DNA of 64,000 nucleotides from Candidatus Fibrimonadaceae bacterium (GTDB lineage: Bacteria; Fibrobacterota; Fibrobacteria; Fibrobacterales; Fibrobacteraceae): NCBI GenBank assembly GCA_031281275.1, contig JAITFP010000075.1:18056-82055 (forward strand). The letters are read 5' to 3'. Shown piece after piece: positions 40,758-57,770 of the stretch. Position 1 is the stretch's first letter. Each line of letters opens with the position of its first letter. A program made the translations under genes and the position numbers. Under the pieces are notes generated by a model that was given only the letters and a program-made list of their open reading frames with translations, made no database searches and was not told the DNA's origin.

Positions 40758-41231
40758 ATGGAAATTCATAGATCAGATTTTCGTCCCAAAAGAATTATTT
40801 CTGTTAATTATGAATCATTTGAATGGTTTATAAACTGCCTTATAATTCTTAGCATTGCTCTTGCCGTTATAGAGTTTATATCGGCAGAATCTTATCAGTC
40901 ATTTATTTATATCCAATGTTCAATTTTGGGCATTTTTATATCAGAAATGGTTATAAAATATATTGCATTTGGCAAAGGGCTTTTCAAAAGTTGGAATCTT
41001 TTTGATTTTTTATCAGTGGTTTTAATTGTTATTTGCGAGATATTATTTATTTATGGAGGTTTAGCAACTATTTTACGAATTGTCCGAATAATTTTACGTT
41101 CTTTGCGATTTTTATTAAAAGCTAAACAAAATAAAGAGTATCTAGCAAAATTGGAAGAATCTTATAAGCAAATTCAAGAGGGGAAGAAAAGAACTCTTAC
41201 TATGGAAGAATTGGAGGATTTAGAAAAATGA
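40758..41231 (+). CDS. voltage-sensor-domain (S1-S4 of Ion_trans family) membrane protein with a YefM/Phd-like C-terminal tail; sits in the antitoxin position upstream of yoeB
   Basis: 157 aa. S2-S3 GIFISEMVIKYIAFGKGLFKSWNLFDFLSVVLIV (compare NaChBac-type F..E...R..A....FF+S.WNWFDFLIV). S4 LRIVRIILRSLRFLLK. No S5-P-S6. Tail NKEYLAKLEESYKQIQEGKKRTLTMEELEDLEK. ATGA overlap with yoeB. Confidence 0.55.
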   Translation: MEIHRSDFRPKRIISVNYESFEWFINCLIILSIALAVIEFISAESYQSFIYIQCSILGIFISEMVIKYIAFGKGLFKSWNLFDFLSVVLIVICEILFIYGGLATILRIVRIILRSLRFLLKAKQNKEYLAKLEESYKQIQEGKKRTLTMEELEDLEK

Positions 41232-41541: not shown

Positions 41542-42150
41542 ATGGAAAAATACCAGATTATGATACAAAAACATCTAAAAAAATTAGACGAAAAAATTGA
41601 AATATTTATCAAATCGGGAAAACATTTACGAAATATCGCATTGATAGGCGTGGTATTTGCTGTAATAATAACAGTGAAAATTATAAATGCAATATTTGGG
41701 CAAACTTATGGTTCCGCAACAATCTATGGCAAAACATATAAAACCATTGTTATAGGCAACAAAACCTGGATGGCAGAGAATTTGAATCACGAAACACGAT
41801 TTTCAAAATGTTATGATAACGAATTCAGAAACTGCTACAAATATGGCAGATTATATAATTGGTACACAGCCCAAAAAATATGCCCTGAGGGTTGGCATTT
41901 GCCAGCAAATAACGAATGGGATGGGTTCTTTGCATCCTTGCTTGGTGGCATCGGTGTTCCCTATCCTACCGGCGACAGCACTATAGGTGCCAAATACTAC
42001 AATATTGACCATAGCGGCTATTGGTGGACTTCCACAAATTACGATATGGAAAATGCCATTGCCCGTAATATATACATAGATGAAGAACGCATTAAATGGG
42101 ACAAATTCGATAAAATAGGCTTGTTCAGTGTGCGGTGTGTTAAGAATTAA
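41542..42150 (+). CDS. membrane-anchored 'Fibrobacter succinogenes major paralogous domain' (FISUMP, TIGR02145-type) protein
   Basis: 202 aa with an N-terminal TM. IGNKTWMAENLN...YGRLYNWYTAQKICPEGWHLPANNEWD...GYWWTST. The 3' end overlaps the recC 3' end by 11 nt. Confidence 0.7.
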   Translation: MEKYQIMIQKHLKKLDEKIEIFIKSGKHLRNIALIGVVFAVIITVKIINAIFGQTYGSATIYGKTYKTIVIGNKTWMAENLNHETRFSKCYDNEFRNCYKYGRLYNWYTAQKICPEGWHLPANNEWDGFFASLLGGIGVPYPTGDSTIGAKYYNIDHSGYWWTSTNYDMENAIARNIYIDEERIKWDKFDKIGLFSVRCVKN

Positions 42151-45246: not shown

Positions 45247-46263
45247 TTAAACCTTCCTAAAATACCCTTCCTTCTCTGGCAAAAGAGAATCGGGGATTAA
45301 TTCTCTTGGAATTAGAACTGTCATTTTGTATTCGGCAACTTTAGGATGTTCTCCCGCCTGTAAACATAAAACGCCAGCTTTTATTATTGATGCTAATATT
45401 TTTTCGTAATAAGCAACAGAATTGTTGCAGTTTGTTTCTATCCAAGAATCTATATATTTTTCTACTATTTCTCTCTGCATTCCGTCAACCGCCATCTGTA
45501 TGCCAGTTTCTAAAAAATCTTTTTTCAAAAGTTTTTCTTTATCTATAAAGTTTTCCAAAGCAAGTATGCCCTCTCTACGGGCTATTTCGCAAAGTTTAAT
45601 TAACTTAATACATATTCTCTCGGCTTCCATTTCAAAAATTTTCTTCATTCCTATTTCCAAAACAGATTCATACTTGTAACGTGTTCTTGTTGCTCCACCC
45701 TGTACTTCTGTTGCTTCTATAACTTGTTCTTTAAGAGATTCTGGCACCAGCATAAACAGCCAGTCTTCCTGTTTAACCGCTTCAATGTACATATCTATGG
45801 TCTTAAATTTTTCTGGTACTTTAGTAAGCAACCACGCTGTCTTTTTAACCGCTTCAAACCAGAATTCTGCCGTTCTGATTTTTTCTGGCACCTCAGCGAG
45901 CAACCACTCATCTTTTTTAACCACTTCAAGCCAGAGTTCGGTTGTTCTAAATTTTTCTGGTATATATTCTTGTACCAATTCCCACGAATGCCTTTTAACT
46001 ATTTCAATATATAGTTCCACAGTCTTAGCATTTTCTGGTATGTATTCAAGTTCAAGAAAAACGCACCGGACTTTAATCGCTTCAAGACATACTTCCGTAG
46101 TTCTAAGTTCTTCTGGTACATAACGAAGTGCATAACGGTTTTCCTTTACTACTTTAAGAGCCTGCGCAACTGTTTTAATTTTTTTCTTCGGTTTGACTCT
46201 TTGGTAGTCTAATAAATTCTCTGTGAGCAAATCTATTTCTTCTTTGCTTAATATATCACCCAT
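45247..46263 (-). CDS. soluble protein: ~5 DUF4116-type 24-aa repeats followed by a TM-less MotA-cytoplasmic-domain-like region
   Basis: 338 aa. Repeats VPEKIRTAEFWFEAVKKTAWLLTK and similar. C-terminal ARREGILALENFID...FLETGIQMAVDGMQREIVEKY...IIKAGVLCLQAGEHPKVAEYKMTVLIP. No TM-length hydrophobic stretch. Confidence 0.55.
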   Translation of the reverse strand: MGDILSKEEIDLLTENLLDYQRVKPKKKIKTVAQALKVVKENRYALRYVPEELRTTEVCLEAIKVRCVFLELEYIPENAKTVELYIEIVKRHSWELVQEYIPEKFRTTELWLEVVKKDEWLLAEVPEKIRTAEFWFEAVKKTAWLLTKVPEKFKTIDMYIEAVKQEDWLFMLVPESLKEQVIEATEVQGGATRTRYKYESVLEIGMKKIFEMEAERICIKLIKLCEIARREGILALENFIDKEKLLKKDFLETGIQMAVDGMQREIVEKYIDSWIETNCNNSVAYYEKILASIIKAGVLCLQAGEHPKVAEYKMTVLIPRELIPDSLLPEKEGYFRKV

Positions 46264-47323
46264 TTTTCACCTCCAACTCTTCTTGATACACCGCCTCAAA
46301 AACTTCATTTTTCAAAGATTCCGGTATATCATCGTCAAGCAAATCTTTTAGACGAATTGTTACAAAATCTTCTCCCCACCATTTGCGCTTAGATTTGACT
46401 ACCTCAATGTAAAGCTCAACTGTTTTTAGGCGTTTTGGCACATCTTTAATTGCGAATGGGCTATTCTTAACCGCTTCAAGGCAAAGTTCTTTTGTCTTAA
46501 ATTCTTTTGGCACAAATTCAAGTGCACAACCGTAGTGCTCGGTTGCCTCGGCACAGAGTTCTTGTGTCTTAAATTTTTCTGGCACATATTTAAGTGCCCA
46601 ACCATTCTGCTTAACTGCTTTAACACAGAGCTCTTCTGTTTTGAATTCTTCTGGTACAAATTCAAGCGCGCAGCCGTCTTGTTCAACTGCTTTGCGGCAA
46701 AATTCTTCTGTTTTGAATTCTTTTGGCACAAATTCAAGCGCACAGCCGTATTGCTCGGTTGCTTCTGTGCAAAGTTCTTTGGTTTTGAATTTTTCTGGTA
46801 CATATTCAAGCATAATACCGCAATTTTTTATTGCATTGCAACATATTTCTTCTGTTCTAAATGCTTCTGGTATAAATTGAATCAGCCAACCATATTGTTT
46901 AATTCCTTCGGGGTAGAATTCTGTCCAAGTTGGTAGCAGTTCCATAGGAATAATGGATTTTATAAAAATATCAGTCATGCGAGGGTTTTCACCTGACTGA
47001 AGGCTTAAAATTCCAGTTTTGATAACCGAGAACAATATTTTATTGTAGTACTCGCAATGACCGGAACTATTTGCTCCTATCCAGAAATCTAAATATTCTT
47101 CTATTTTTGCGTTCTCCATTCCATCAACCACCATCTGCAAAGCAAATTCCAAAGGGTCTCCGTTTGGGTCTTTTTCTTTGTCTATAAACTTTTCAATGGA
47201 CAAAAGCCCTTCTCTTCTACACATCATAGCGGCAAAGCATATACGAAAGTGTATCCTCTCGTATTCTTTTTTGAAAGCCTCCACAGTAGCTTTTTCTACG
47301 GCTGATTCATATTTGATAGTCAT
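46256..47323 (-). CDS. soluble protein: MotA-cytoplasmic-domain-like region followed by ~7 DUF4116-type repeats
   Basis: 355 aa from MTIKYESAV (AGGAGG RBS; the track ORF extends to 47368). CRREGLLSIEKFID...LEFALQMVVDGMENAKIEEY...VIKTGILSLQSGENPRMTDIFIKSIIP, then VPEKFKTKELCTEATEQYGCALEF repeats. Confidence 0.55.
   Translation of the reverse strand: MTIKYESAVEKATVEAFKKEYERIHFRICFAAMMCRREGLLSIEKFIDKEKDPNGDPLEFALQMVVDGMENAKIEEYLDFWIGANSSGHCEYYNKILFSVIKTGILSLQSGENPRMTDIFIKSIIPMELLPTWTEFYPEGIKQYGWLIQFIPEAFRTEEICCNAIKNCGIMLEYVPEKFKTKELCTEATEQYGCALEFVPKEFKTEEFCRKAVEQDGCALEFVPEEFKTEELCVKAVKQNGWALKYVPEKFKTQELCAEATEHYGCALEFVPKEFKTKELCLEAVKNSPFAIKDVPKRLKTVELYIEVVKSKRKWWGEDFVTIRLKDLLDDDIPESLKNEVFEAVYQEELEVKNG
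46430..46900. repeat. 72-nt-period in-frame tandem repeat array (DUF4116 units)
   Basis: TT(T/C)TGG(C/T)ACA(A/T)ATT(C/T)AAG recurs near 46505, 46575, 46647, 46719 and 46791. The units at ~46505 and ~46719 are near-identical. Confidence 0.7.
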
Positions 47324-47348
47324 TTTTTCACCTCCTTTCTGCTTATTT

Positions 47349-47969
47349 TTAGAAGGGCAGTTCGCCATTGAAGCATTTTCCCTCGTTTTCTAAGGCTCGT
47401 TTTGCTATCTCTATAGGCTCAATGCACCACTGAACAATTTCTGGAACAGCCACTTTAAGCTCTGCAATAGCCTTGCTAAAATATTCATCGTCATAATTAA
47501 TACTTTTGCAAAGATACGCTCGCGCCCGCCATATTCGAGCTTCAAGGCAGTCTGGATCTTTTTCAAGCGCAGCGGTGTAGCTTGTTATTGCTTCGTCATA
47601 GTCTTCATTGACAAAATATTCATCGGCTTTGGTTAGGAATTTAAGAATATGAATTGGTTTTTGTGCGAAATAACCGTTTTCAAAAACTAAAGTCTCGTAG
47701 CTTGCCTGTTTTGTGTTAGCTGCAATGAGTGCTTTTGCTTCTGCAGCATCTACATTGTATTGCAAGAATAAAGTTTCGGCAACCGTTTTCCAATCGGTTT
47801 CGCTGCTTGCTACGCTGTCAAATTTGCAAACACCGTCAATTTTGACTGTTATTGAGCGAAGCATCGCTACTGCTTCTTTTTCAATGGCGTTCAAAATTTT
47901 CTGGTCTGAGCGCAGGTCATAGATTCTGCTTGCTATGGCTTTTGCTTCTTGTTTTATTGTATCACCCAT
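47349..47969 (-). CDS. TPR-containing protein
   Basis: 206 aa. ADEYFVNEDYDEAITSYTAALEKDPDCLEARIWRARAYL is a TPR signature. AGGAGA RBS. First gene of a 3-gene operon. Confidence 0.55.
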   Translation of the reverse strand: MGDTIKQEAKAIASRIYDLRSDQKILNAIEKEAVAMLRSITVKIDGVCKFDSVASSETDWKTVAETLFLQYNVDAAEAKALIAANTKQASYETLVFENGYFAQKPIHILKFLTKADEYFVNEDYDEAITSYTAALEKDPDCLEARIWRARAYLCKSINYDDEYFSKAIAELKVAVPEIVQWCIEPIEIAKRALENEGKCFNGELPF

Positions 47970-48488: not shown

Positions 48489-50054
48489 TCAACACCCAAA
48501 AACTGTTATTTTATCATATTCTCTAACATACAATTTCTCTTCCCAGCTCTTGCTCACATCCCTGTCAAAAACAACAAGCCAGCCTCTTTTCGTTCCGCAT
48601 CTCTCCATATAAGCAGAAAGCTGAACCAAGCCTTCTGGAATGGTTTGCTCATTCTTTAATATCTTAAGCTCAATAGGATATTTTTTGCCTTCCCATTCTA
48701 TGCAAATATCAGCACGTTTTTTACCCAAAGCCATCTCTCTGGATATGCTGCCGCCGCCGTTTAGAACCCGCTGCAAAAAAGCTTGTATAACCAAATGCGG
48801 AGCGGCTTCATCGTACTGGTAAAAATTCTCTTTGTAACGCTTTATCCATATTTCGCTATTCTCACGCCAAAAAAACTGAAACTCGCGTAACAGAGTATCT
48901 ATATCTATTTTATCATCTTTCACATATTTGGGCAGGTTATCATCAGGTCTTTCAAGTTTAATGCTATCTTGCAACGAATAATTCAAGGCTCTTACTATCA
49001 CTTCAGCGTAAATCGGATTCGCAGGCTCAACAACGCCATTCTCGGAATCTCTTATCAAACCCAAATCCCTTGTGTATAGATAATCATCAGAACTTTTATC
49101 TATAAACATCTCGCCTAGTATAAGTGGTTCTATTATATTACGAACCCTATTTTCCTTTAGCCTCTCCATTAAACTGTCAAAATGCGTGCCCCTAGCTAAA
49201 ATTATGTTGTTGATTGCGGTTTTTGCCATTTCTATCGTTATGGGAATCGCGTAATCTTTTTTACAGATTTTTTCCACACATTCACGAGCTACTGCGTTTA
49301 CCAACCAGGGATGCCCTTGGGTTTGTTCATAAATGTAATCCGTTGCCTGTGCCTCAAAAACTTGCTTCGTTTCTTGTGTGTGTTGGTTGTAAAGCTCGGT
49401 CACATTTTCTTTCGTGAAATTTCTCAAATTCAAACTTTCGGTCACAATATTAAACGGGCTTGAACTGCCTAGCGTTTCGCTGTCACTCCTGATGTGGGCT
49501 TTATAGTCTCTTATATTCCTCATTCCAACAAGAGCAATGCTGTGAACAAATGGAGTTCTTGCACGGGAAACAAAACCATTCCGCAATTGTCTTAAAAAAG
49601 TGATTAAGGTTCCGTTGCTGAGGCAATCCGCTTCGTCAAAAAGTATAATCAAAGGCTTATCCAAAGAGCGGCAATAGTCCACAAGCGCAATGTTTAGCAC
49701 ATTTGACACTCTGCTACAATCCGCCTCCTTTGCAAAATCTGGTGGCAGACCTTGGATTTTTATGCAATCCTCTATATTTCTAACAATTTCGGGTATTCCC
49801 CTTTCTGGTTCGGTAAATGATTGCACTCCTTCTAAAGAACAATACAAAGCATGGTATTTGCCTTCTGCGTTTATTTTATCCGCAAGCTCCAGCAAGAGAG
49901 TTGTCTTTCCGCTCTGTCTTGAGGCATGGATAACGAAATATTGTTTTGAATCTATCAAATCCATTAATTCTTTGCAAATGCCACGCAAAGGGTCGAGCAT
50001 ATAATGTTCGTTTGTATTACAAGGACCTGCTATGTTGAAGTATTTTTGAGGCAT
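48489..50054 (-). CDS. AAA-type ATP-binding protein with C-terminal PD-(D/E)XK-like nuclease domain
   Basis: 521 aa from MPQKYFNIAGPCNTNEHYML (the track ORF extends to 50147). Walker A HASRQSGKTTLL, Walker B LIILFDEAD. C-terminal RADICIEWEGKKYPIELKILK (D..E.K). Confidence 0.6.
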   Translation of the reverse strand: MPQKYFNIAGPCNTNEHYMLDPLRGICKELMDLIDSKQYFVIHASRQSGKTTLLLELADKINAEGKYHALYCSLEGVQSFTEPERGIPEIVRNIEDCIKIQGLPPDFAKEADCSRVSNVLNIALVDYCRSLDKPLIILFDEADCLSNGTLITFLRQLRNGFVSRARTPFVHSIALVGMRNIRDYKAHIRSDSETLGSSSPFNIVTESLNLRNFTKENVTELYNQHTQETKQVFEAQATDYIYEQTQGHPWLVNAVARECVEKICKKDYAIPITIEMAKTAINNIILARGTHFDSLMERLKENRVRNIIEPLILGEMFIDKSSDDYLYTRDLGLIRDSENGVVEPANPIYAEVIVRALNYSLQDSIKLERPDDNLPKYVKDDKIDIDTLLREFQFFWRENSEIWIKRYKENFYQYDEAAPHLVIQAFLQRVLNGGGSISREMALGKKRADICIEWEGKKYPIELKILKNEQTIPEGLVQLSAYMERCGTKRGWLVVFDRDVSKSWEEKLYVREYDKITVFGC

Positions 50055-50061
50055 TAGGGGT

Positions 50062-50072
50062 AAAATAGAATT
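50062..50072 (-). promoter_or_regulatory. AATTCTATTTT element 7 nt upstream of the ATG at 50054
   Basis: Minus-strand reading TTCAAAATTCTATTTTACCCCTAATG. Supports the shorter start. Confidence 0.35.
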
Positions 50073-50285
50073 TTGAATCGCTCGTATAAGAGTGAGCTGG
50101 AAAAAAACGATTTTCGCAATATCTGCATAAATAGTGATATTCATCACAAATAATAAAAAAATTGCAAAAATAACTTAGCTTTTTGCATATCGCATGTTAT
50201 ATAGAGAAATCAAACTACAAAGTTTCTGGTGACGAGTGTCATGAAATTTAATTGTAGTTAAATGCCAAAAATAGGAGATTATATT

Positions 50286-51310: not shown

Positions 51311-51655
51311 TTATAATATAGAAACTCCTTCATCATCATTATCTGCCATATATTTTTTCATTACAATCTTGATTTTTGGAGTTATGAGTTCCTTGGGCAC
51401 AAATTCAATCGCATCGCCAGTTTGCTTTACCGCAGCAAGGCAAATCTCCGAGATTTTTAGTTCTACAGGCACATATTGAAGCGCACAGCCGTTTCTCTTC
51501 ACCGCAGCAAGGCAAAGTTCTGGGGTTTTGTGTTTAGATGGTACGTAAGCCAGTTCATAGCCCCATTGCTTTACAACGGCAAGGCATAATTCATAAGTTT
51601 TGAATTTTGTGGGAACGAATTTAAACGTATCGGAGTTATTTTTCACCATAATCAT
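51311..51655 (-). CDS. DUF4116-type repeat protein (~4 units)
   Basis: 114 aa from MIMVKNN. ATGA overlap with the upstream stop (51652-51655). VPSKHKTPELCLAAVKRNGCALQY repeats. Confidence 0.55.
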   Translation of the reverse strand: MIMVKNNSDTFKFVPTKFKTYELCLAVVKQWGYELAYVPSKHKTPELCLAAVKRNGCALQYVPVELKISEICLAAVKQTGDAIEFVPKELITPKIKIVMKKYMADNDDEGVSIL

Positions 51656-52380
51656 TTCCCCTTCACCAACAATTTCTCCACTTCTAACCTCATACTCTCT
51701 GGAACCCAATTTCTATTATAAGGATATGCTTTGCACGCCTCAAAGCACAATTCCACTGTTTTCAGATTTTCTGGAACCCTACTAAGAGCATCGCCGCAGC
51801 TTGTTACGAATGCTTTGCAAAATTCTGGAGTTATCAAGTCTTTTGGAACTAAGTTCAAGCTCATAATACTCCCAAGAGCATCGTCACTTTGCAGAACGGC
51901 GGCAAGGCACATTTCTGTTGTTCTCAAATTTTCTGGAACAGCTTCAAGATTACGCCAGTCTTTTTTCACAGCGGTTAGGCACAATTCCGACGTTTTCAAA
52001 TTTTCTGGAGTGCAATAAAAATCATTTAGACCGGAGTATTTTACATTTTTTACATTCCTTTTAATTATACGCTCCAAGCCTTCTTTGCGACTTATCAAGT
52101 CTTTTCGTTCTATGCGCAATTTAGAGTTTTCTTTAAGTAAATAATCAATTATGTCTGCCAAGCCATTGGGTAAAACGTAAAGAGGGTTTGCTGGCTCATT
52201 TCTGTGTTCATAATGCTCTTTATAATCCAGCAAAGCCTTTCTCATATTTATTTTCCAACTTATATTTTGCAGAATGTCTATTTTCTGCTCCATTGTGGTT
52301 CTATTATATTCATCGCAATAAGGGTCTAAACATTCCCTTAATTTGCCCAAAAGCTCGTTTAAATCTAAAGTTTCACTCAT
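51652..52380 (-). CDS. protein with N-terminal helical region and ~4 DUF4116-type repeats
   Basis: 242 aa from MSETLDL. I prefer this start because the 5 upstream codons of the track ORF fall inside the duplicated 25-bp promoter-region repeat. TPENLKTSELCLTAVKKDWRNLEA repeats. Confidence 0.5.
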   Translation of the reverse strand: MSETLDLNELLGKLRECLDPYCDEYNRTTMEQKIDILQNISWKINMRKALLDYKEHYEHRNEPANPLYVLPNGLADIIDYLLKENSKLRIERKDLISRKEGLERIIKRNVKNVKYSGLNDFYCTPENLKTSELCLTAVKKDWRNLEAVPENLRTTEMCLAAVLQSDDALGSIMSLNLVPKDLITPEFCKAFVTSCGDALSRVPENLKTVELCFEACKAYPYNRNWVPESMRLEVEKLLVKGK

Positions 52381-52386
52381 ATTTAC

Positions 52387-52411
52387 ATATAACATACAAT
52401 ATCCAAAAATG
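52387..52411. repeat. second copy of ATATAACATACAATATCCAAAAATG
   Basis: Identical to 48008-48032. Followed by GGTATTTTT...TTTTTCTATTTT as in copy 1, with a ~16-nt indel. Confidence 0.85.
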
Positions 52412-52448: not shown

Positions 52449-53642
52449 TTAGCTTTTTATGGCATTTTTCACCTCTCTTTTAATATATGCTGGCACATAT
52501 TTAAGCACATAGCCATTTTGTTTAACCGCTTCAATGCAAAGTTTAGCAGTTTTGAAGGCTTTAGGAACATATTTGAGCATATAACCATCTTGCTTAACCG
52601 CTTCAAGGCACATTTCCGCAGTCTTTAAGTTTTCTGGCACATATTGAAATGCCCAGCCACACCGCAGCTTTACCGCTTCATTGCAGAATTTAGCCGTTTT
52701 TATAGTTTCTGGCACATAGTTAAATGCATAGCTATTTTGCTTAATCGCTTCAAGATAGATTTTGGCAGTTTTGAGATTTTCTGGCACATATTCAAGCATT
52801 TTGCCCTCATTGCCTTGCATTGCTTTAAAACAGATTTTGGGAGTTTTTAGGGATTCTGGCACGTATTTAAATGCAGAGCAATTACTTTTAACCGCCTCAA
52901 GGCAGAGTTCCTCTGTTTTTAAATTTTCTGGCACATATTCAAGCCAGCAGCCGTTCTTTTTAACTGTTTCAAAATACATTTCCGCAGTCTTTAAGTTTTC
53001 TGGCACGTGTTTAAGCACATCAACTCCATTCATAACTGCTTCAAAGCAAAGTTCTGCGGTCTTGAGATTTTCTGGCACATATTCAAGCATCATCCCATCG
53101 CGCTTAACCGCTTCAAGGCAAAGTTCAGCGGTTTTTAGATTTTCTGGCACATATTTAAGGGCATCGCTATCTTGTTTAACTGCTTCAAGGCAGAGTTCAG
53201 CGGTTTTCAAATTTTCTGGCACATATCTAAGTATCCAGCCTTCGTGCTTAATCGCTTCAATGTAGAGTTCAGCGGTTTTTAAGTTTTCTGGCAATTCAAG
53301 CCAATCAACCCAACGGTATTTGGTGGAAATAGGCTTAGGCTCGGCAAGATTATGCAATGAGTTTATAAAATTCTTTATAGATTCTTGGGCGTGAGCAATA
53401 AATCTAGTTCCATCACAAGGAAATGTTTCTATGGCTTTAATTAAACCCTTTGTTCCTGCTTTCACAAGATGCTGCATAGGCGCTCTGTCTTTATATCTCA
53501 TTGCAATTTTCAAAACATAATTCATATTTGCGTCTATTAATTTTTTTCGCGCAGCACGGTCTTTTTTATTTTCCAATAAATGATATTCCTCTTCCATTGT
53601 TAAAGCTGGAATATCTTTGTATTTGTATTTTTCTTCATTCAT
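52449..53642 (-). CDS. sigma-70 region-2-like N-terminal module fused to 11 DUF4116-type repeats (no region 3/4)
   Basis: 397 aa from MNEEKYKYK (the ATG lies 1 nt after the trkA stop). LTMEEEYHLL...ARKKLIDANMNYVLKIAMRYKDRAPMQHLVKAGTKGLIKAIETFPCDGTRFIAHAQESIKNFI, then 11 copies of VPENLKTAELCLEAVKQxGxxLxY. Confidence 0.55.
   Translation of the reverse strand: MNEEKYKYKDIPALTMEEEYHLLENKKDRAARKKLIDANMNYVLKIAMRYKDRAPMQHLVKAGTKGLIKAIETFPCDGTRFIAHAQESIKNFINSLHNLAEPKPISTKYRWVDWLELPENLKTAELYIEAIKHEGWILRYVPENLKTAELCLEAVKQDSDALKYVPENLKTAELCLEAVKRDGMMLEYVPENLKTAELCFEAVMNGVDVLKHVPENLKTAEMYFETVKKNGCWLEYVPENLKTEELCLEAVKSNCSAFKYVPESLKTPKICFKAMQGNEGKMLEYVPENLKTAKIYLEAIKQNSYAFNYVPETIKTAKFCNEAVKLRCGWAFQYVPENLKTAEMCLEAVKQDGYMLKYVPKAFKTAKLCIEAVKQNGYVLKYVPAYIKREVKNAIKS
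52480..53300. repeat. 72-nt-period in-frame tandem repeat array (11 units)
   Basis: TTTTCTGGCACATAT(T/C) recurs at roughly 72-nt spacing (near 52631, 52777, 52923, 52995, 53067, 53147, 53209, with degenerate copies between). Several units share stretches of more than 20 nt identity. Confidence 0.75.
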
Positions 53643-53643
53643 A

Positions 53644-54303
53644 TTACATCCTATCCAAGGCTTCGTTTGGTCCAAATAAAAATAATGCATCTCCATCACT
53701 AAATTCATATTGTGCTTTTGGAACAGCGTTTAGCTTTCCTGTTTTTGCATCTTTAATGGCAATAACCTGAACTCCATATTTGTTTATCAAATTAGCATCC
53801 ATCAATGTTTTGCCCACCAAGTTTTTGGGGCATTTCCATTCCATAACAGAATAACCGTCCATAAGCGGCATAAAATCCAAAATGTTGGGGCGACCTATTT
53901 TATCCAGTTTGTTTGCGAGTTCAACAGCCATATCACGTTCTGGTTGGAATATGTATTCTGGAAGCAAACCCATTTTTTCAAGTATTGCGCAATGAGCGGT
54001 ATCGTTTGCTTTTGCCATTATGTTCATCACACCCATTTCCTTTAAATTTAAAATTGTGATAAGCGAACTTTCAAGAGAGCCTATGCACACTATCACAAAA
54101 TCTGCTTTGGCAAGCGGAAATCTTTGCAGCATATTTTTTCTTAAAGAATCTGCAACTGCCGCCTGCGAAGCAAAAGGCGTTATGTCTTGGACAATTTCTG
54201 CTTCCTTATCTACGGCAAGCACCGAATGCCCAAGCTCCGACAAACGCTTCACTAAAAGAATGCCTGTATTTCCAAGCCCTATCACTATGAATTGTTTAGA
54301 CAT
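53644..54303 (-). CDS. trkA: Trk/Ktr potassium uptake NAD-binding subunit
   Basis: 219 aa. FIVIGLGNTGILLVKRLSELGHSVLAVD Rossmann motif plus a TrkA-C-like C-terminus. Confidence 0.85.
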   Translation of the reverse strand: MSKQFIVIGLGNTGILLVKRLSELGHSVLAVDKEAEIVQDITPFASQAAVADSLRKNMLQRFPLAKADFVIVCIGSLESSLITILNLKEMGVMNIMAKANDTAHCAILEKMGLLPEYIFQPERDMAVELANKLDKIGRPNILDFMPLMDGYSVMEWKCPKNLVGKTLMDANLINKYGVQVIAIKDAKTGKLNAVPKAQYEFSDGDALFLFGPNEALDRM

Positions 54304-54304
54304 A

Positions 54305-55651
54305 TCAACCCACCATCACGTTTTCCTCTGAATAATAAGCATCCGAATGCGGTTGCAGAACCACAGCTTGAACCAAAACCAAAGGACCAAGCCTGCCTAC
54401 AAACATAACCACAGATAGCAAAATTTTTCCAGATGTTGTTAAATATTCCGTTATTCCCATGCTCAAGCCACAAGTTGAAAACGCACTCACGGTTTCAAAC
54501 AATAATTCCAAAAAACGATCCTGCCCCGCTTGTACAGACAAATTTGCAGTTTCAAAATTCAAAAGCAAAATACAAGTAATGGCTATAAATATAACAGATA
54601 GAACAAAAATTCGCACAGCGCGAGATACAGTTTCTTCAGGTATTGTGCGGTTGAAAGCCTGCGTTTTTTTGCGACCTAAAAATCTATTTATGCCAAGCAA
54701 CACTATTATCGCAGCAGTTGTTGTTTTTATGCCGCCGCCGCAGCTTCCAGGGCTTGCCCCTATGAACATGAGCAAAATCATAGTGAAAAGCAGAGGAGCG
54801 CCAAGGAGCGCAAAATTCACCGTGCTATAACCACCGGAACGCGCGGTCACGGATTGAAAAACGCTTATCAAAGCTTTATCGAAAAAAGAGTAGCCTTTCA
54901 AAACGCCATCCCATTCCATATTCAGCATCAAAAGCATTCCAAAAATTATCAGCGTAACTGTCATAAGCAAAACGAGTTTTGTGTGCAAAGTCAAATATTT
55001 GCCCGGTATTTTATTTTTTTTTGACGACACAAATTCAGACAAAGCCAAAAAACCAAAACCTCCACAGATTATTAAAAATATCAATGTTATATTCACCACC
55101 ACATTTGTGGAAAAACCTTGCATAGAATTATCTAGCAAGGAAAAACCCGCATTGCAGAATGCGCTTATGGCGTGAAAAGCCGAGAAAAACAAACGCTCCC
55201 AGATTGGCATATCCGAAAATTGCGTGAAAAGCATTATGGCACCGCATAGTTCAATTGCCAATGTAATTATCACCACTTTCATTACAACATAAGCGGTACT
55301 TGAGTTATCGTCTGCGGAATAACTGCTGCTCAAAGCCGATAATTGACCAAAACTCATTTTGGAATGCAGAATAAGCATTATTATGGTTGAAATAGCCATT
55401 ATCCCTATGCCGCCCACCTCTATTAAACTGAGTAATATGAACTGCCCTGCAAAACTGAGTTCGTGCCCAATAGACACAACAGCAAGCCCATTTACACAAG
55501 AAGCGGATGTTGCCATAAAAAGCGCATCTGAAAATGTCAAGCCAGAGTTTGAACTAAAAGGCATTAAGAGCAAAATTGTGCCAAGCGAAATCAAAGCTAG
55601 AAATCCTGCCACAGGGTAAAGCATTGGATGGCGGCTAATGTAACTTGACAT
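54305..55651 (-). CDS. trkH: Trk/Ktr potassium transporter membrane subunit
   Basis: 448 aa, polytopic. Repeated pore-loop-like motifs (SASCVNGL, CNAGFS, TARSGGY, STCGLS). Ends 1 nt upstream of trkA. Confidence 0.8.
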   Translation of the reverse strand: MSSYISRHPMLYPVAGFLALISLGTILLLMPFSSNSGLTFSDALFMATSASCVNGLAVVSIGHELSFAGQFILLSLIEVGGIGIMAISTIIMLILHSKMSFGQLSALSSSYSADDNSSTAYVVMKVVIITLAIELCGAIMLFTQFSDMPIWERLFFSAFHAISAFCNAGFSLLDNSMQGFSTNVVVNITLIFLIICGGFGFLALSEFVSSKKNKIPGKYLTLHTKLVLLMTVTLIIFGMLLMLNMEWDGVLKGYSFFDKALISVFQSVTARSGGYSTVNFALLGAPLLFTMILLMFIGASPGSCGGGIKTTTAAIIVLLGINRFLGRKKTQAFNRTIPEETVSRAVRIFVLSVIFIAITCILLLNFETANLSVQAGQDRFLELLFETVSAFSTCGLSMGITEYLTTSGKILLSVVMFVGRLGPLVLVQAVVLQPHSDAYYSEENVMVG

Positions 55652-55659
55652 TTATTTAC

Positions 55660-56412
55660 CTAATCCTGTTGCGCAGGCAACTTTGCCAAAGCCTCGGCGG
55701 CAGATTTTATGTTTTCCGTTGGGGTATCGCTAAAAAGCCTCCCGTCTTTTAATTTTATTGTGCGATTGCTGAATTCCGTGATTTCTGGATTGTGGGTCAC
55801 AAAAACTATGGTTTTCCCTTGCTTGTTCAATTCCTGAAACAAAACCATAATTTCATAACCAGTGCGTTCATCCAATGCTCCAGTTGCTTCGTCTGCCAAA
55901 ATCATAACGGGGTTATTCACAAGCGCGCGCGCTATGGCAACCCTCTGCTGCTGCCCACCAGAAAGCTGGCTTGGCAAATGGTCGCTACGATTCACAAGCC
56001 CAACTCTTTCCAAACAGGACATTGCCATTTTTCTGCGTTTTTTGGAAGATACTTCTGAATTGTAAAGCAGGGGTAATTCAACCTGTTCAAGTGCGCTGGT
56101 ACGTGGCAAAAGATTAAAGCTCTGAAACACAAAACCTATTTTTCTGTTTCTGAGTGTTGCAAGAGCATCTTTTTTTAACTTGTATGTTGGCTTGCCGTCC
56201 AAAATATATTCGCCGCTTGTTGGTTTATCTAGCAAGCCAAGTGTATTTAGGAGCGTTGTTTTTCCGCTGCCGCTTGCACCCATTATTGTTACAAATTCTC
56301 CTGCAAATATTGAAAAACTAACACTGCGCAAGGCGTGTATTGTTTCTGCGCCCATATAAAAATCACGCTTAACGTTTCTTATATCTAAAATTGCTGTTCT
56401 ACTCTCATTCAC
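55660..56412 (-). CDS. ABC transporter ATP-binding protein (MacB/LolD/FtsE-type)
   Basis: 250 aa. [38 protein letters not shown]. No FtsX-type permease gene adjacent. Confidence 0.85.
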
Positions 56413-57770
56413 AAAGTACCCAATATTTCAATTATTGTTTCTCTAACAATTCCAGTAGTTTGGCTGGCTACCGTGGAAAGAACTTTACGCGCTTCGGGCG
56501 TGTTTATGGTGCCAAGGGCAAGAACAGCTTCTCTTGAAATGGATTCATTTGAATTGTCTGCAACTATGCTGCCCAAAGGCTCTAAAAAAATCGGGTCGGG
56601 GAAATGGCTCATAATGCGAATGGCAGCAATTCTGTTGTCTGCTGCGAGGATTCTATTTTTTGCTTCTCTAATAAGAAATCTTTTTGCTACCTCTCCCCTT
56701 TCTATAAAAATCTGCTCTTTTGCCTGCAATGAATCTGGGTTGAATTCGTCTGCTCTATAACCTGCAACAATTTCCTTGAAATTTTTTTGCATATCCACCA
56801 TATAATCGCCACTTGTATTTGGATCTATTTCAAAGTAATAGAGCATTTCAAGGTTATCTAATTTCGCACGTAAATTGATTAAATCCATATTTTGAACTGC
56901 AAGTTGGTTTTTTAAACTGTCAATCTCATGTTTTCTGCTTTGAATGTTTTCGCTAAATCCGCCATTAATGGCAATGGACATATAAACTCCAGGAGCGCGA
57001 TATCCGTTGTATGCGCCAGGATTTTTGATTCTAAAGCCAAAATGTTCGTCTTTATTAAAGAAATATCTGTAAAAATCGCTTGCACCTGCACTTATTTGCA
57101 AATATTTAATAGGCTTCAAAGATAATCCCGCATTGTGATGCGAAAATCCGTATCTAAAAAATCCCTCATAAGTGATGCTCAATTTCTGCGTACCCAAACC
57201 CTGCTCAAAGCCCCAAAAAGGCGCTATATCATCTGATTTCATAAAAGGAAAGATCGATACTCCACCTAAGAGCTTCCACCAGTCATTGCCCCACTCCGCA
57301 ACTGCGTAAAATTCTCCGGTTTGTTCTTTGCGCTCGGTTTTGGGAACGGAATAGAAATATGCTTCAGGGCTTTGCACAAATGCTCTTGCCCCAATCGCAA
57401 TGGCAGGCACAACCAAAAAGGCTTTGTTAACCCGGTCTTTTACATCTAAAGAAATGGTGCTACCAAACTGAAGACCCAGCTCCAAAGAGTTCAAAAAACC
57501 AAAACGAAGCGAACTCACAAAGGGATGCCTATCGCACATATAATTGCTAACGCAGCTTGACTGGTGATAGCCAATGGTTCCGCGAACCTGAAAAGCCTTA
57601 TCGCCCAAAACTTCCGCAGAAGGCACAACCAAAAAATCGCTACCATCGCTAAGAGCAAAAACAGAACCTTGCGCAAGCACAAAGAATAGGAAAAATAATT
57701 TTAACCGAGCAAAAAACACTCTACCTATCATAGCAAGATTCTCTATCTTTCTTAAAAAAGATGTTTGCAT
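56409..57770 (-). CDS. secreted protein: beta-rich N-terminal half, coiled coil, C-terminal HEAT/PBS-lyase-like repeats
   Basis: 453 aa. Hydrophobic signal region; IDSLKNQLAVQNMDLINLRAKLDNLE; AAIRIMSHFPDPIFLEPLGSIV...REAVLALGTINTPEARKVL. Confidence 0.4.
   Translation of the reverse strand: MQTSFLRKIENLAMIGRVFFARLKLFFLFFVLAQGSVFALSDGSDFLVVPSAEVLGDKAFQVRGTIGYHQSSCVSNYMCDRHPFVSSLRFGFLNSLELGLQFGSTISLDVKDRVNKAFLVVPAIAIGARAFVQSPEAYFYSVPKTERKEQTGEFYAVAEWGNDWWKLLGGVSIFPFMKSDDIAPFWGFEQGLGTQKLSITYEGFFRYGFSHHNAGLSLKPIKYLQISAGASDFYRYFFNKDEHFGFRIKNPGAYNGYRAPGVYMSIAINGGFSENIQSRKHEIDSLKNQLAVQNMDLINLRAKLDNLEMLYYFEIDPNTSGDYMVDMQKNFKEIVAGYRADEFNPDSLQAKEQIFIERGEVAKRFLIREAKNRILAADNRIAAIRIMSHFPDPIFLEPLGSIVADNSNESISREAVLALGTINTPEARKVLSTVASQTTGIVRETIIEILGTL

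Follow-up and report, generated by a model that had tools for sequence, protein, structure and literature searches.

The fusion gene and its product

Within a 64,000-nucleotide stretch of DNA from a Candidatus Fibrimonadaceae bacterium (the whole stretch is hereafter named the window), one gene on the reverse strand encodes a 397-aa protein in which region 2 of a sigma-70-family factor (sigma2) is joined to a long array of DUF4116 repeats. Its stop-free reading frame spans positions 52449..53642, and residues 15-95 of the translation match the sequence quoted in an earlier reading of this DNA (hereafter the original prediction). The stop codon TAA of trkA is located at 53646-53644 and the ATG of the fusion gene at 53642-53640, with 1 base between them. 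This spacing had been predicted, together with the upstream genes for a HEAT-repeat protein, an ABC ATPase, TrkH and TrkA, which were confirmed by Pfam. The upstream genes are tightly packed (gaps or overlaps of 8 nt or less), and the same order (HEAT_2, ABC, trkH, trkA, fusion gene), including the 1-nt trkA spacing, is kept on a contig of a Fibrobacteraceae metagenome-assembled genome (MAG), L001. Judged from this conserved spacing, co-transcription of the fusion gene with trkA is plausible. A promoter and terminator scan was neutral on this point, with counts near those of shuffled controls (29 promoters against 24.6±5.0; 14 terminators against 7.5±3.1) and no site bearing on the trkA junction or on the 3' end of the fusion gene. 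A longer open reading frame (ORF), which reads back to 53708, was set aside because the additional part is the tail of trkA read out of frame and this extension differs among orthologs. The gene, the parts of its product and the genes of the putative operon are the following:

52449..53642, reverse strand: complete gene for the fusion of a degenerate sigma2 domain with DUF4116 repeats (ORF and translation, trkA spacing, ratio of nonsynonymous to synonymous substitution rates (dN/dS) of 0.088 against the L001 ortholog)
53349..53609, reverse strand: sigma-70-family sigma2 domain (regions 1.2-2.4), residues ~12-98, with the degenerate region 2.3 FIAHAQESIKNF (PDB, NCBIfam, AlphaFold2 (AF2), Foldseek, column analysis)
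53292..53348, reverse strand: low-confidence linker, residues ~99-117, NLAEPKPISTKYRWVDWLEL (predicted local distance difference test (pLDDT) <50 in both AF2 models; sequence conserved in orthologs)
52490..53293, reverse strand: 11 tandem DUF4116 units of 24-25 aa, predicted alpha-solenoid (Pfam, Tandem Repeats Finder, AF2), followed by a C-terminal cap to 52452
53644..54303, reverse strand: trkA (TrkA_N + TrkA_C), immediately upstream (Pfam; 1-nt spacing; same arrangement in L001)
54305..57770, reverse strand: HEAT-repeat (HEAT_2) protein, ABC ATPase (ABC_tran) and trkH, the upstream genes of the putative operon (Pfam)

The N-terminus of the protein is a true sigma-70-family sigma2 domain, as the original prediction had proposed from the spacing of its residues. 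When it was compared with all PDB sequences by phmmer, the top match was the sigma2 fragment of Legionella RpoS (5h6x, E=8.3e-12), and ~70 further PDB sigma chains were matched, all of them aligned to residues ~12-93. The NCBIfam models of RpoS, SigK, RpoH and SigE matched residues 9-93 (E=3e-11 to 4e-9), the best score of 39-43 bits being below every full-length sigma model (curated cut-offs 230-570). The AF2 model obtained from a 30-sequence alignment showed four helices with a pLDDT of ~90 over residues 11-99. Foldseek superposed this N-terminal model on sigma2 of sigmaS, sigma32 and sigmaA with template modelling (TM) scores of 0.70-0.73 and a root-mean-square deviation of 1.5-2.4 Å, so that the fold expected by the original prediction was recovered. 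The domain is thus like sigma2 of the group 2/3 factors (RpoS, RpoH, SigK/SigE; PDB 5h6x and 5ipl chain F) in regions 1.2, 2.1 and 2.2 and in the backbone of regions 2.3-2.4, with 31-40% identity in the Foldseek alignments. In contrast to these factors, the window protein lacks regions 3 and 4, the residues Y430, W433 and W434 and an acidic residue at position 403, and its region 2.2 has a basic surface.

These differences were located by column analysis, in which 243 other sigma-family sequences and 15 members of the family described below were aligned to one profile and numbered as in sigma70. The fold-determining residues of regions 2.1-2.2 (N383, G408, G411, L412 and A415) are kept in the window protein. 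In sigma70, the -10 element is captured and melted by Y430, W433 and W434. The window protein has H, E, S and N at the columns of Y430, W433, W434 and Q437, whereas the other sigmas carry Y430 in 203 of 241 sequences, W433 in 137 of 234 and W434 in 154 of 232. In region 2.2 there is no D or E at position 403, and the substitutions E407A, N409T and I410K are found. Neither Pfam nor NCBIfam gave a match to Sigma70_r3 or Sigma70_r4 in the window protein, residues 118-397 being DUF4116 repeats. Both the replacement of the -10-melting aromatics and the exchange of regions 3 and 4 for a DUF4116 array had been predicted. Since sigma3 and sigma4 are absent and the -10 residues are lost, the window protein is not a functional sigma factor and is unable to start transcription itself.

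The repeat array is well defined. Pfam DUF4116 (PF13475) scored 208.3 bits (E=7e-63) against a gathering threshold of 24.9 bits, in agreement with the predicted family assignment. Tandem Repeats Finder detected a 72-nt period with 11.1 copies and 68% matches between 52490 and 53293, and inspection by eye gave 11 units, each of 24-25 aa, and a cap at the C-terminus, the unit number being that of the original prediction. The consensus of the unit is VPExLKTxELCLEAVKQNGxALxY (24 aa). In a single-sequence AF2 model the array consists of helix-turn-helix units with a pLDDT of 85-94, and the low-confidence linker is found at residues 102-109. Comparison of the full-length model with the PDB by Foldseek returned just designed or HEAT-like helical repeats with TM <0.26, nothing specific on the solenoid. 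DUF4116 has been predicted to be an alpha-solenoid (PMC8078820), which agrees with the AF2 and Foldseek results obtained here. Two long ORFs on the opposite strand of DUF4116 arrays, 52762-53265(+) and 45785-46123(+), have repetitive translations of the 'FSGTY...' type and were rejected as genes; they are mirror artefacts of repeat DNA.

A small family of sigma2-only proteins

Relatives of the N-terminal domain were collected by running phmmer exhaustively over 1.8 billion representative proteins with residues 1-117 as the query, which gave 1907 matches, just 8 of them below 1e-10. Five of the eight are members of one family (P0001, P0002, P0004, P0006 and P0008). P0003 and P0005 are RpoS-like proteins with an internally duplicated region 2, and P0007 contains two sigma2-like copies and was left unassigned. 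A profile search yielded roughly a dozen short proteins (97-111 aa) whose sequence stops just behind region 2.4. As this search returned proteins of ≤211 aa only, apparently through a length limit relative to the query, it is uninformative on fusions, for which a full-length search was used, dominated in turn by DUF4116-only proteins. The family was reached by exhaustive phmmer and profile search only: neither a word-indexed search for homologs of the N-terminal 117 aa by themselves nor a look-up of contigs by the exact sequence of the window protein, tried with both start codons, gave a match. Several stand-alone members sit on contigs of 58, 108 and 209 kb, which indicates that they are complete genes, and one is annotated in a Fibromonadaceae MAG. 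A metagenome scan recovered mostly ordinary sigma factors, L013 and L014 being the only family members found in it.

The family is defined by the signature KL(I/V)DANM...AG(K/T)KGL(I/V)xAI and by the absence of sigma3 and sigma4, and the window protein shows both features. With the family profile (hmmsearch), relatives scored E=1e-34 to 1e-50 and the window protein E=6e-52, the latter value being partly circular because the profile (A1) includes the window sequence and its ortholog. Y430, W433 and W434 are kept in 13, 11 and 9 of the 15 members, respectively, and in most of the stand-alone ones. The whole family shares an altered region 2.2, LVEAGKKGLIxAIE. The window protein is, therefore, a diverged member of a small sigma2-only family that has been seen mainly in Fibrobacterota. 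The original prediction knew of no described protein with this architecture. None was found in the literature searched on DUF4116, Fib_succ_major and truncated sigmas or the clamp helix; the window protein is, however, not unique, being one of this family. Independently of it, a second, unrelated lineage of 112-aa sigma2-only proteins (the P0222 group; L010 6001-6339 and L011 3044-3382) has the region 2.2 motif 'EAGKEGL' and has lost W433 and W434; in L010 and L011 its genes precede a 74-aa ORF and the genes for GreA and for an AAA ATPase distinct from the double-AAA one described below.

The fusion architecture itself is shared by three close relatives. The ortholog in L001 is full-length and 92.7% identical overall, that in L013 is a fragment at the start of a contig with 95% identity over the part present, and P0001 is a protein fragment with 88-89% identity; for the N-terminal part, the identities of the three to the window protein are 89-95%. 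The degenerate stretch FIAHAQESIKNF is identical in L001. The dN/dS values between the window and L001 (Nei-Gojobori) were 0.088 for the fusion gene as a whole, with 0.17 in the sigma-like part and 0.066 in the repeats, compared with 0.05 for trkA, 0.12 for trkH and 0.03 for the ABC ATPase gene. The fusion gene is under purifying selection. Two loci from other metagenomes, L014 and L093, encode more distant proteins of the same design (620 and 644 aa, respectively), with a degenerate sigma2-like N-terminus, the motif 'SIKNF' and a long DUF4116 array. Over 416 aa, identity between the L093 and window proteins is 42%, and the N-terminus of the 620-aa L014 protein is 39% identical to that of the window protein over 69 aa.

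The original prediction had named, among the findings that would speak against it, orthologs that are full-length sigma factors, which would leave the window copy as a recombinant chimera or pseudogene. In favour of such a non-functional product of a sigma gene recombined with a DUF4116 gene, region 2.3 of the window protein is indeed degenerate and its Pfam score lies below threshold. Against this, three genomes or contigs have an uninterrupted reading frame, dN/dS (0.088) is comparable to that of the housekeeping neighbours, L001, L013 and P0001 have the same architecture, and the degenerate stretch is itself conserved, with a similar 'SIKNF' in relatives of ~40% identity. A pseudogene or one-off chimera is ruled out by the dN/dS value and by the shared architecture of the orthologs, and this explanation can be regarded as effectively refuted.

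Gene neighbourhoods and other DUF4116 fusions

The genes around family members recur. A Fib_succ_major protein directly follows the gene of the stand-alone sigma2 mini-protein in L002, L003, L007, L008 and L093, and a 754-aa double-AAA ATPase, 78-83% identical across four loci (L002, L003, L009 and L012), is encoded next to a sigma2-only gene or fusion in each of them:

L002, 3961-5832: double-AAA ATPase gene
L003, 6876-9140: double-AAA ATPase gene
L009, 6793-8730: double-AAA ATPase gene
L012, 3-1928: double-AAA ATPase gene

The best PADLOC match of this ATPase is IetA (E=1.5e-35), and the protein is IetA/TRIP13-like. In L003, long DUF4116 proteins follow it. Taken as a neighbourhood, Fib_succ_major, ATPase and DUF4116 genes are present in L002, L003, L009, L012 and L093. 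The same components are linked in Rosetta-stone fashion, since sigma2, Fib_succ_major and DUF4116 are separate neighbours in L002, L003, L007 and L093 and are fused in P0002 and P0266 (sigma2 + Fib_succ_major + DUF4116), in P0158 (DUF4116 + sigma2) and in the window protein. A 705-aa protein of L014 combines Fib_succ_major, a degenerate sigma2, DUF4116 and a MotA cytoplasmic domain, as assigned by Pfam (Fib_succ_major, DUF4116), by pairwise BLASTP (sigma2) and, for the MotA-like C-terminal end, by eye. Three sigma2-type modules are found in one tightly packed gene row in L093. The operon-like rows L093 1695-10365 and L014 134-5809 contain up to three such modules (degenerate fused, stand-alone and intact fused) among Fib_succ_major and DUF4116 genes. 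Next to the window gene, DUF4116 genes are the only adjacent ones of this set, the single Fib_succ_major gene (41542-42150) being ~10 kb away; attachment to a trk operon sets the window gene apart from these other loci.

DUF4116 arrays also carry other domains. The following fusions were recovered by the full-length search and belong to proteins of other metagenomic bacteria (E values from Pfam):

P0279: C-terminal domain of the RNA polymerase alpha subunit (alpha-CTD) + DUF4116 (E=3e-20)
P0268 and P0294: FliG_C + DUF4116 (E=9e-62 and 6e-19)
P0360: FliM + FliG_M + DUF4116 (E=2e-59 and 2e-11)
P0298: FtsZ (Tubulin domain) + DUF4116 (E=2e-31)
P0282: BRCT + DUF4116 (E=1e-10)
P0313: DarT (toxin domain) + DUF4116 (E=4e-12)

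Because DUF4116 is also fused to alpha-CTD, FliG, FliM, FtsZ, BRCT and DarT, the sigma2 fusion is one case of a wider pattern, that of solenoids bearing isolated domains of large cellular machines. DUF4116 relatives are labelled Treponema and Spirochaetia in their sources. No description of the function of DUF4116, or of its fusions to sigma2, alpha-CTD, FliG, FliM, MotA or FtsZ, was found in the literature searched.

Downstream of the fusion gene, the block from 45.2 to 52.4 kb, which extends to recC, is a variable island, as seen by comparison with L013 (1-4741) and L001 (11386-14989). It is absent in L013, where recC directly follows the ortholog, and its order differs in L001; the fusion gene is, thus, a stable element bordering a variable island. 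A tetratricopeptide-repeat protein is also encoded in the 7 kb downstream of the fusion gene, together with the following genes:

51311..52395, reverse strand: two DUF4116 proteins (247 aa and 132 aa, overlapping ORFs; Pfam E=1e-10 and 3e-23), directly downstream, start of the island; absent from L013 and rearranged in L001
50605-51273, reverse strand: 222-aa protein with a weak resemblance to Brig1, an anti-phage DNA glycosylase (NF047634; E=4e-10; 39.6 bits, cut-off 230)
48489-50147, reverse strand: 552-aa ATPase of the AAA_35/ATPase_2 type (Pfam E=1.4e-10)
45247-46263 and 46256-47368, reverse strand: two DUF4116 proteins with a soluble MotA/PomA cytoplasmic domain (Pfam; NCBIfam MotA E=1e-8 to 1e-11; PDB MotA 6ysl E=1.8e-6)

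The Brig1-like protein has a 282-aa homolog in L001, and the gene of the 552-aa ATPase is 88% identical there; no PADLOC or PHROG match was obtained for this ATPase. The MotA/PomA part corresponds to the TM2-TM3 loop plus the C-terminal tail, has no transmembrane helices, and is C-terminal in one of the two proteins and N-terminal in the other. Both proteins are part of the modular family that also includes the 705-aa L014 protein. Beyond the island, between the recB-like and recC genes, are the Fib_succ_major-domain protein mentioned above (41542-42150(+), E=3e-19) and a 157-aa ORF (40758-41231(+)) that matches the first ~116 of 241 positions of Pfam Ion_trans (E=3e-11) and is possibly a truncated channel.

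Possible roles of the fusion protein

In sigma factors, the region 2.2 helix contacts the beta-prime clamp helices of RNA polymerase, and a sigma2 fragment cut out of sigma70 binds the beta-prime coiled-coil by itself. We favour, tentatively and with a probability of about 0.4, a cytoplasmic sigma-derived adaptor in which the sigma2 stub would dock on the beta-prime clamp helices, as a competitor of sigma and NusG or as a tether to RNA polymerase. Without the -10 residues and without regions 3 and 4, the remaining sigma part would serve as a protein-protein docking surface only. The clamp helices of the core enzyme, the ancestral partner, would be its most likely target because of the descent of the domain from sigma. 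A flexible linker of ~20 residues would join the stub to the 11-unit DUF4116 solenoid, a generic scaffold to which numerous other docking domains are attached in related bacteria. Docked in this way, the stub could compete with true sigmas and also with factors of the NusG type, which occupy this site as well; alternatively, it could tether cargo bound by the solenoid to the polymerase. Expression would probably be coupled to the trk potassium-uptake operon. In favour of the adaptor are the sigma homology and fold with the fold-determining residues retained, the purifying selection, the architecture shared with orthologs and more distant relatives, the existence of complete stand-alone members, the Rosetta-stone links, and the fusion of DUF4116 arrays to other machine-docking domains such as alpha-CTD, which makes the solenoid a general carrier.

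Several observations weigh against this adaptor. The Sigma70_r2 model (PF04542), with which the original prediction had proposed to check the domain, gave 17.6 bits (E=0.0033) on the window copy, below the gathering threshold of 24; the homology holds by transitivity, since the threshold is passed by its relatives P0002 (30.3), P0266 (31.3) and, marginally, the L014 mini-protein (24.3). The predicted N-terminal fold is not fully independent evidence, as the input alignment of AF2 contained true sigmas. An acidic residue at position 403 is found in none of the 15 family members, compared with D or E in 231 of the 243 other sigmas, and the family region 2.2 shows further changes (Q406E/K; E407A in 13 of 15; K or T at N409; I410K in 13 of 15). 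The nearest full-length relatives, Fibrobacter sigma-70-family proteins (P0161 and similar), keep D403 and E407, and taken together with the region 2.2 changes this could point to a different partner. The constant double-AAA ATPase beside stand-alone members is a candidate alternative partner, and no homolog of it was found within the 64-kb window. The E407A substitution was considered as proof of lost core binding and rejected, since A407 occurs in 31 other sigma-family sequences, full-length ones included; the missing D/E403 is the more unusual feature. The original prediction of a core-polymerase-binding sigma module stripped of promoter reading is, hence, borne out as regards the stripping, but not, as it was stated, as regards core binding. 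The remodelling of region 2.2 throughout the family, together with the ATPase that constantly adjoins the stand-alone forms, makes a retargeted partner or a role as decoy a real possibility.

A retargeted partner is a less probable alternative to the polymerase adaptor. The sigma2 module would no longer bind RNA polymerase but partners of its own family (the double-AAA ATPase, Fib_succ_major and DUF4116 proteins), and the borrowed sigma2, cytoplasmic MotA, FliG and FliM domains would be connectors or substrates for assembling or remodelling solenoid complexes. The strongly conserved, family-specific change to 'LVEAGKKGLIxAIE' in region 2.2 is consistent with this, as are the ATPase adjoining the sigma2 mini-protein gene with 78-83% identity in four loci, the pairing of a 112-aa sigma2-only protein with an AAA ATPase in the second lineage, and multi-module proteins such as the 705-aa L014 protein and P0360. 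However, the window gene has neither such an ATPase nor a Fib_succ_major gene alongside, and the retention of Y430, W433 and W434 in most stand-alone members is hard to explain without a role related to DNA or RNA polymerase. Still less probable is an integrated decoy or conflict-system sensor, in which the module, a copy of a host-machine domain displayed on the array, would be a bait that is bound or modified by an effector of a phage or mobile element and thereby triggers an associated effector, the window protein representing the sigma2 bait. The fusion of DUF4116 to sigma2, alpha-CTD, FliG, FliM, FtsZ, BRCT and the toxin domain DarT argues for it, and so do the variable island directly downstream, with its Brig1-like protein and AAA_35 ATPase, and the resemblance of the ATPase beside stand-alone members to the defence ATPase IetA. 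Yet the fusion gene is stably attached to the trk operon, outside the variable block, and its low dN/dS (0.09) gives no hint of diversifying selection. The window protein itself lacks an effector domain, and the resemblances to Brig1 and IetA are weak or generic. The only PADLOC system match is a partial one to the MzaA region, explained by sigma homology. MzaA, a component of the MZA anti-phage system (NF041931, PDLC02203), likewise contains a sigma-70 region-2-like segment inside a larger non-sigma protein, and its models matched the window protein with E=1e-4 to 1e-7 (PADLOC 1.3e-4) and the stand-alone relatives with E=4e-12. The match, however, covers the sigma2-like ~65-95 residues of the ~700-aa MzaA and reaches 31 bits against an NCBIfam cut-off of 800, and no MzaB-E or other PADLOC components were found among the neighbours tested. 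Searches with PADLOC, PHROGs and tblastn against phages assigned the fusion to no defence system and to no phage, and revealed no phage relatives. Extended to DUF4116 solenoids in general, the idea becomes quite improbable: the arrays would form an integrated decoy platform, comparable to plant NLR immune receptors with their integrated decoy domains, that displays docking domains of essential cellular machines (sigma2 and alpha-CTD of RNA polymerase; FliG, FliM and MotA of the flagellar motor; FtsZ) as baits for effectors of phages or mobile elements, or else as tethers to such machines. In that case AAA ATPases or toxin domains such as DarT may supply the output and the window protein may be the sigma2 bait.

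Sigma factors encoded in pieces are also known. Phage T4 gp55/gp33 is a split sigma system, and the gene spoIVCB is the N-terminal half of sigK, which is interrupted by the skin element and rejoined by excision. Like spoIVCB-type ORFs, which are present among the matches as 139-aa Clostridia proteins, the window protein has sigma region 2 only; unlike these fragments, its gene is a stable fusion, conserved in orthologs and under selection. To our knowledge, no known split sigma resembles a protein in which an 11-unit solenoid has taken the place of regions 3 and 4. It is very improbable that the window protein is half of a two-subunit sigma of the SigO-RsoA or gp55/gp33 type, directing transcription together with a separate sigma4-type protein. 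Such systems exist, as in B. subtilis SigO-RsoA (PMC7826278), and they share with the window protein a sigma2-type module on a polypeptide without sigma4; the region 2.3 aromatics kept in stand-alone members are in line with such a function. These systems, in contrast, have a dedicated partner and drive initiation, whereas the window protein has lost the melting residues Y430, W433 and W434 and has a solenoid attached. No sigma4 or helix-turn-helix protein was found among ten unannotated family neighbours, the annotated neighbours or the neighbours of the window gene, which argues against a SigO-RsoA-type split sigma.

The architecture and the family are real, under selection and undescribed in the literature searched, and their taxonomic range is narrow. 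Sigma factors are ordinarily regarded as indivisible initiation factors. A selected sigma2-only family suggests that the polymerase-docking surface of sigma has been reused beyond promoter recognition, be it for competition at the clamp, for tethering or with a new partner. Should the changes in region 2.2 have given the domain a new target, the family would represent a natural experiment in rewiring of the sigma-core interface. The DUF4116 arrays that bear RNA polymerase, flagellar-motor and divisome domains provide a first testable hypothesis for this domain of unknown function, and the fusions offer natural 'minimal binders' of these three machines in a compact collection.

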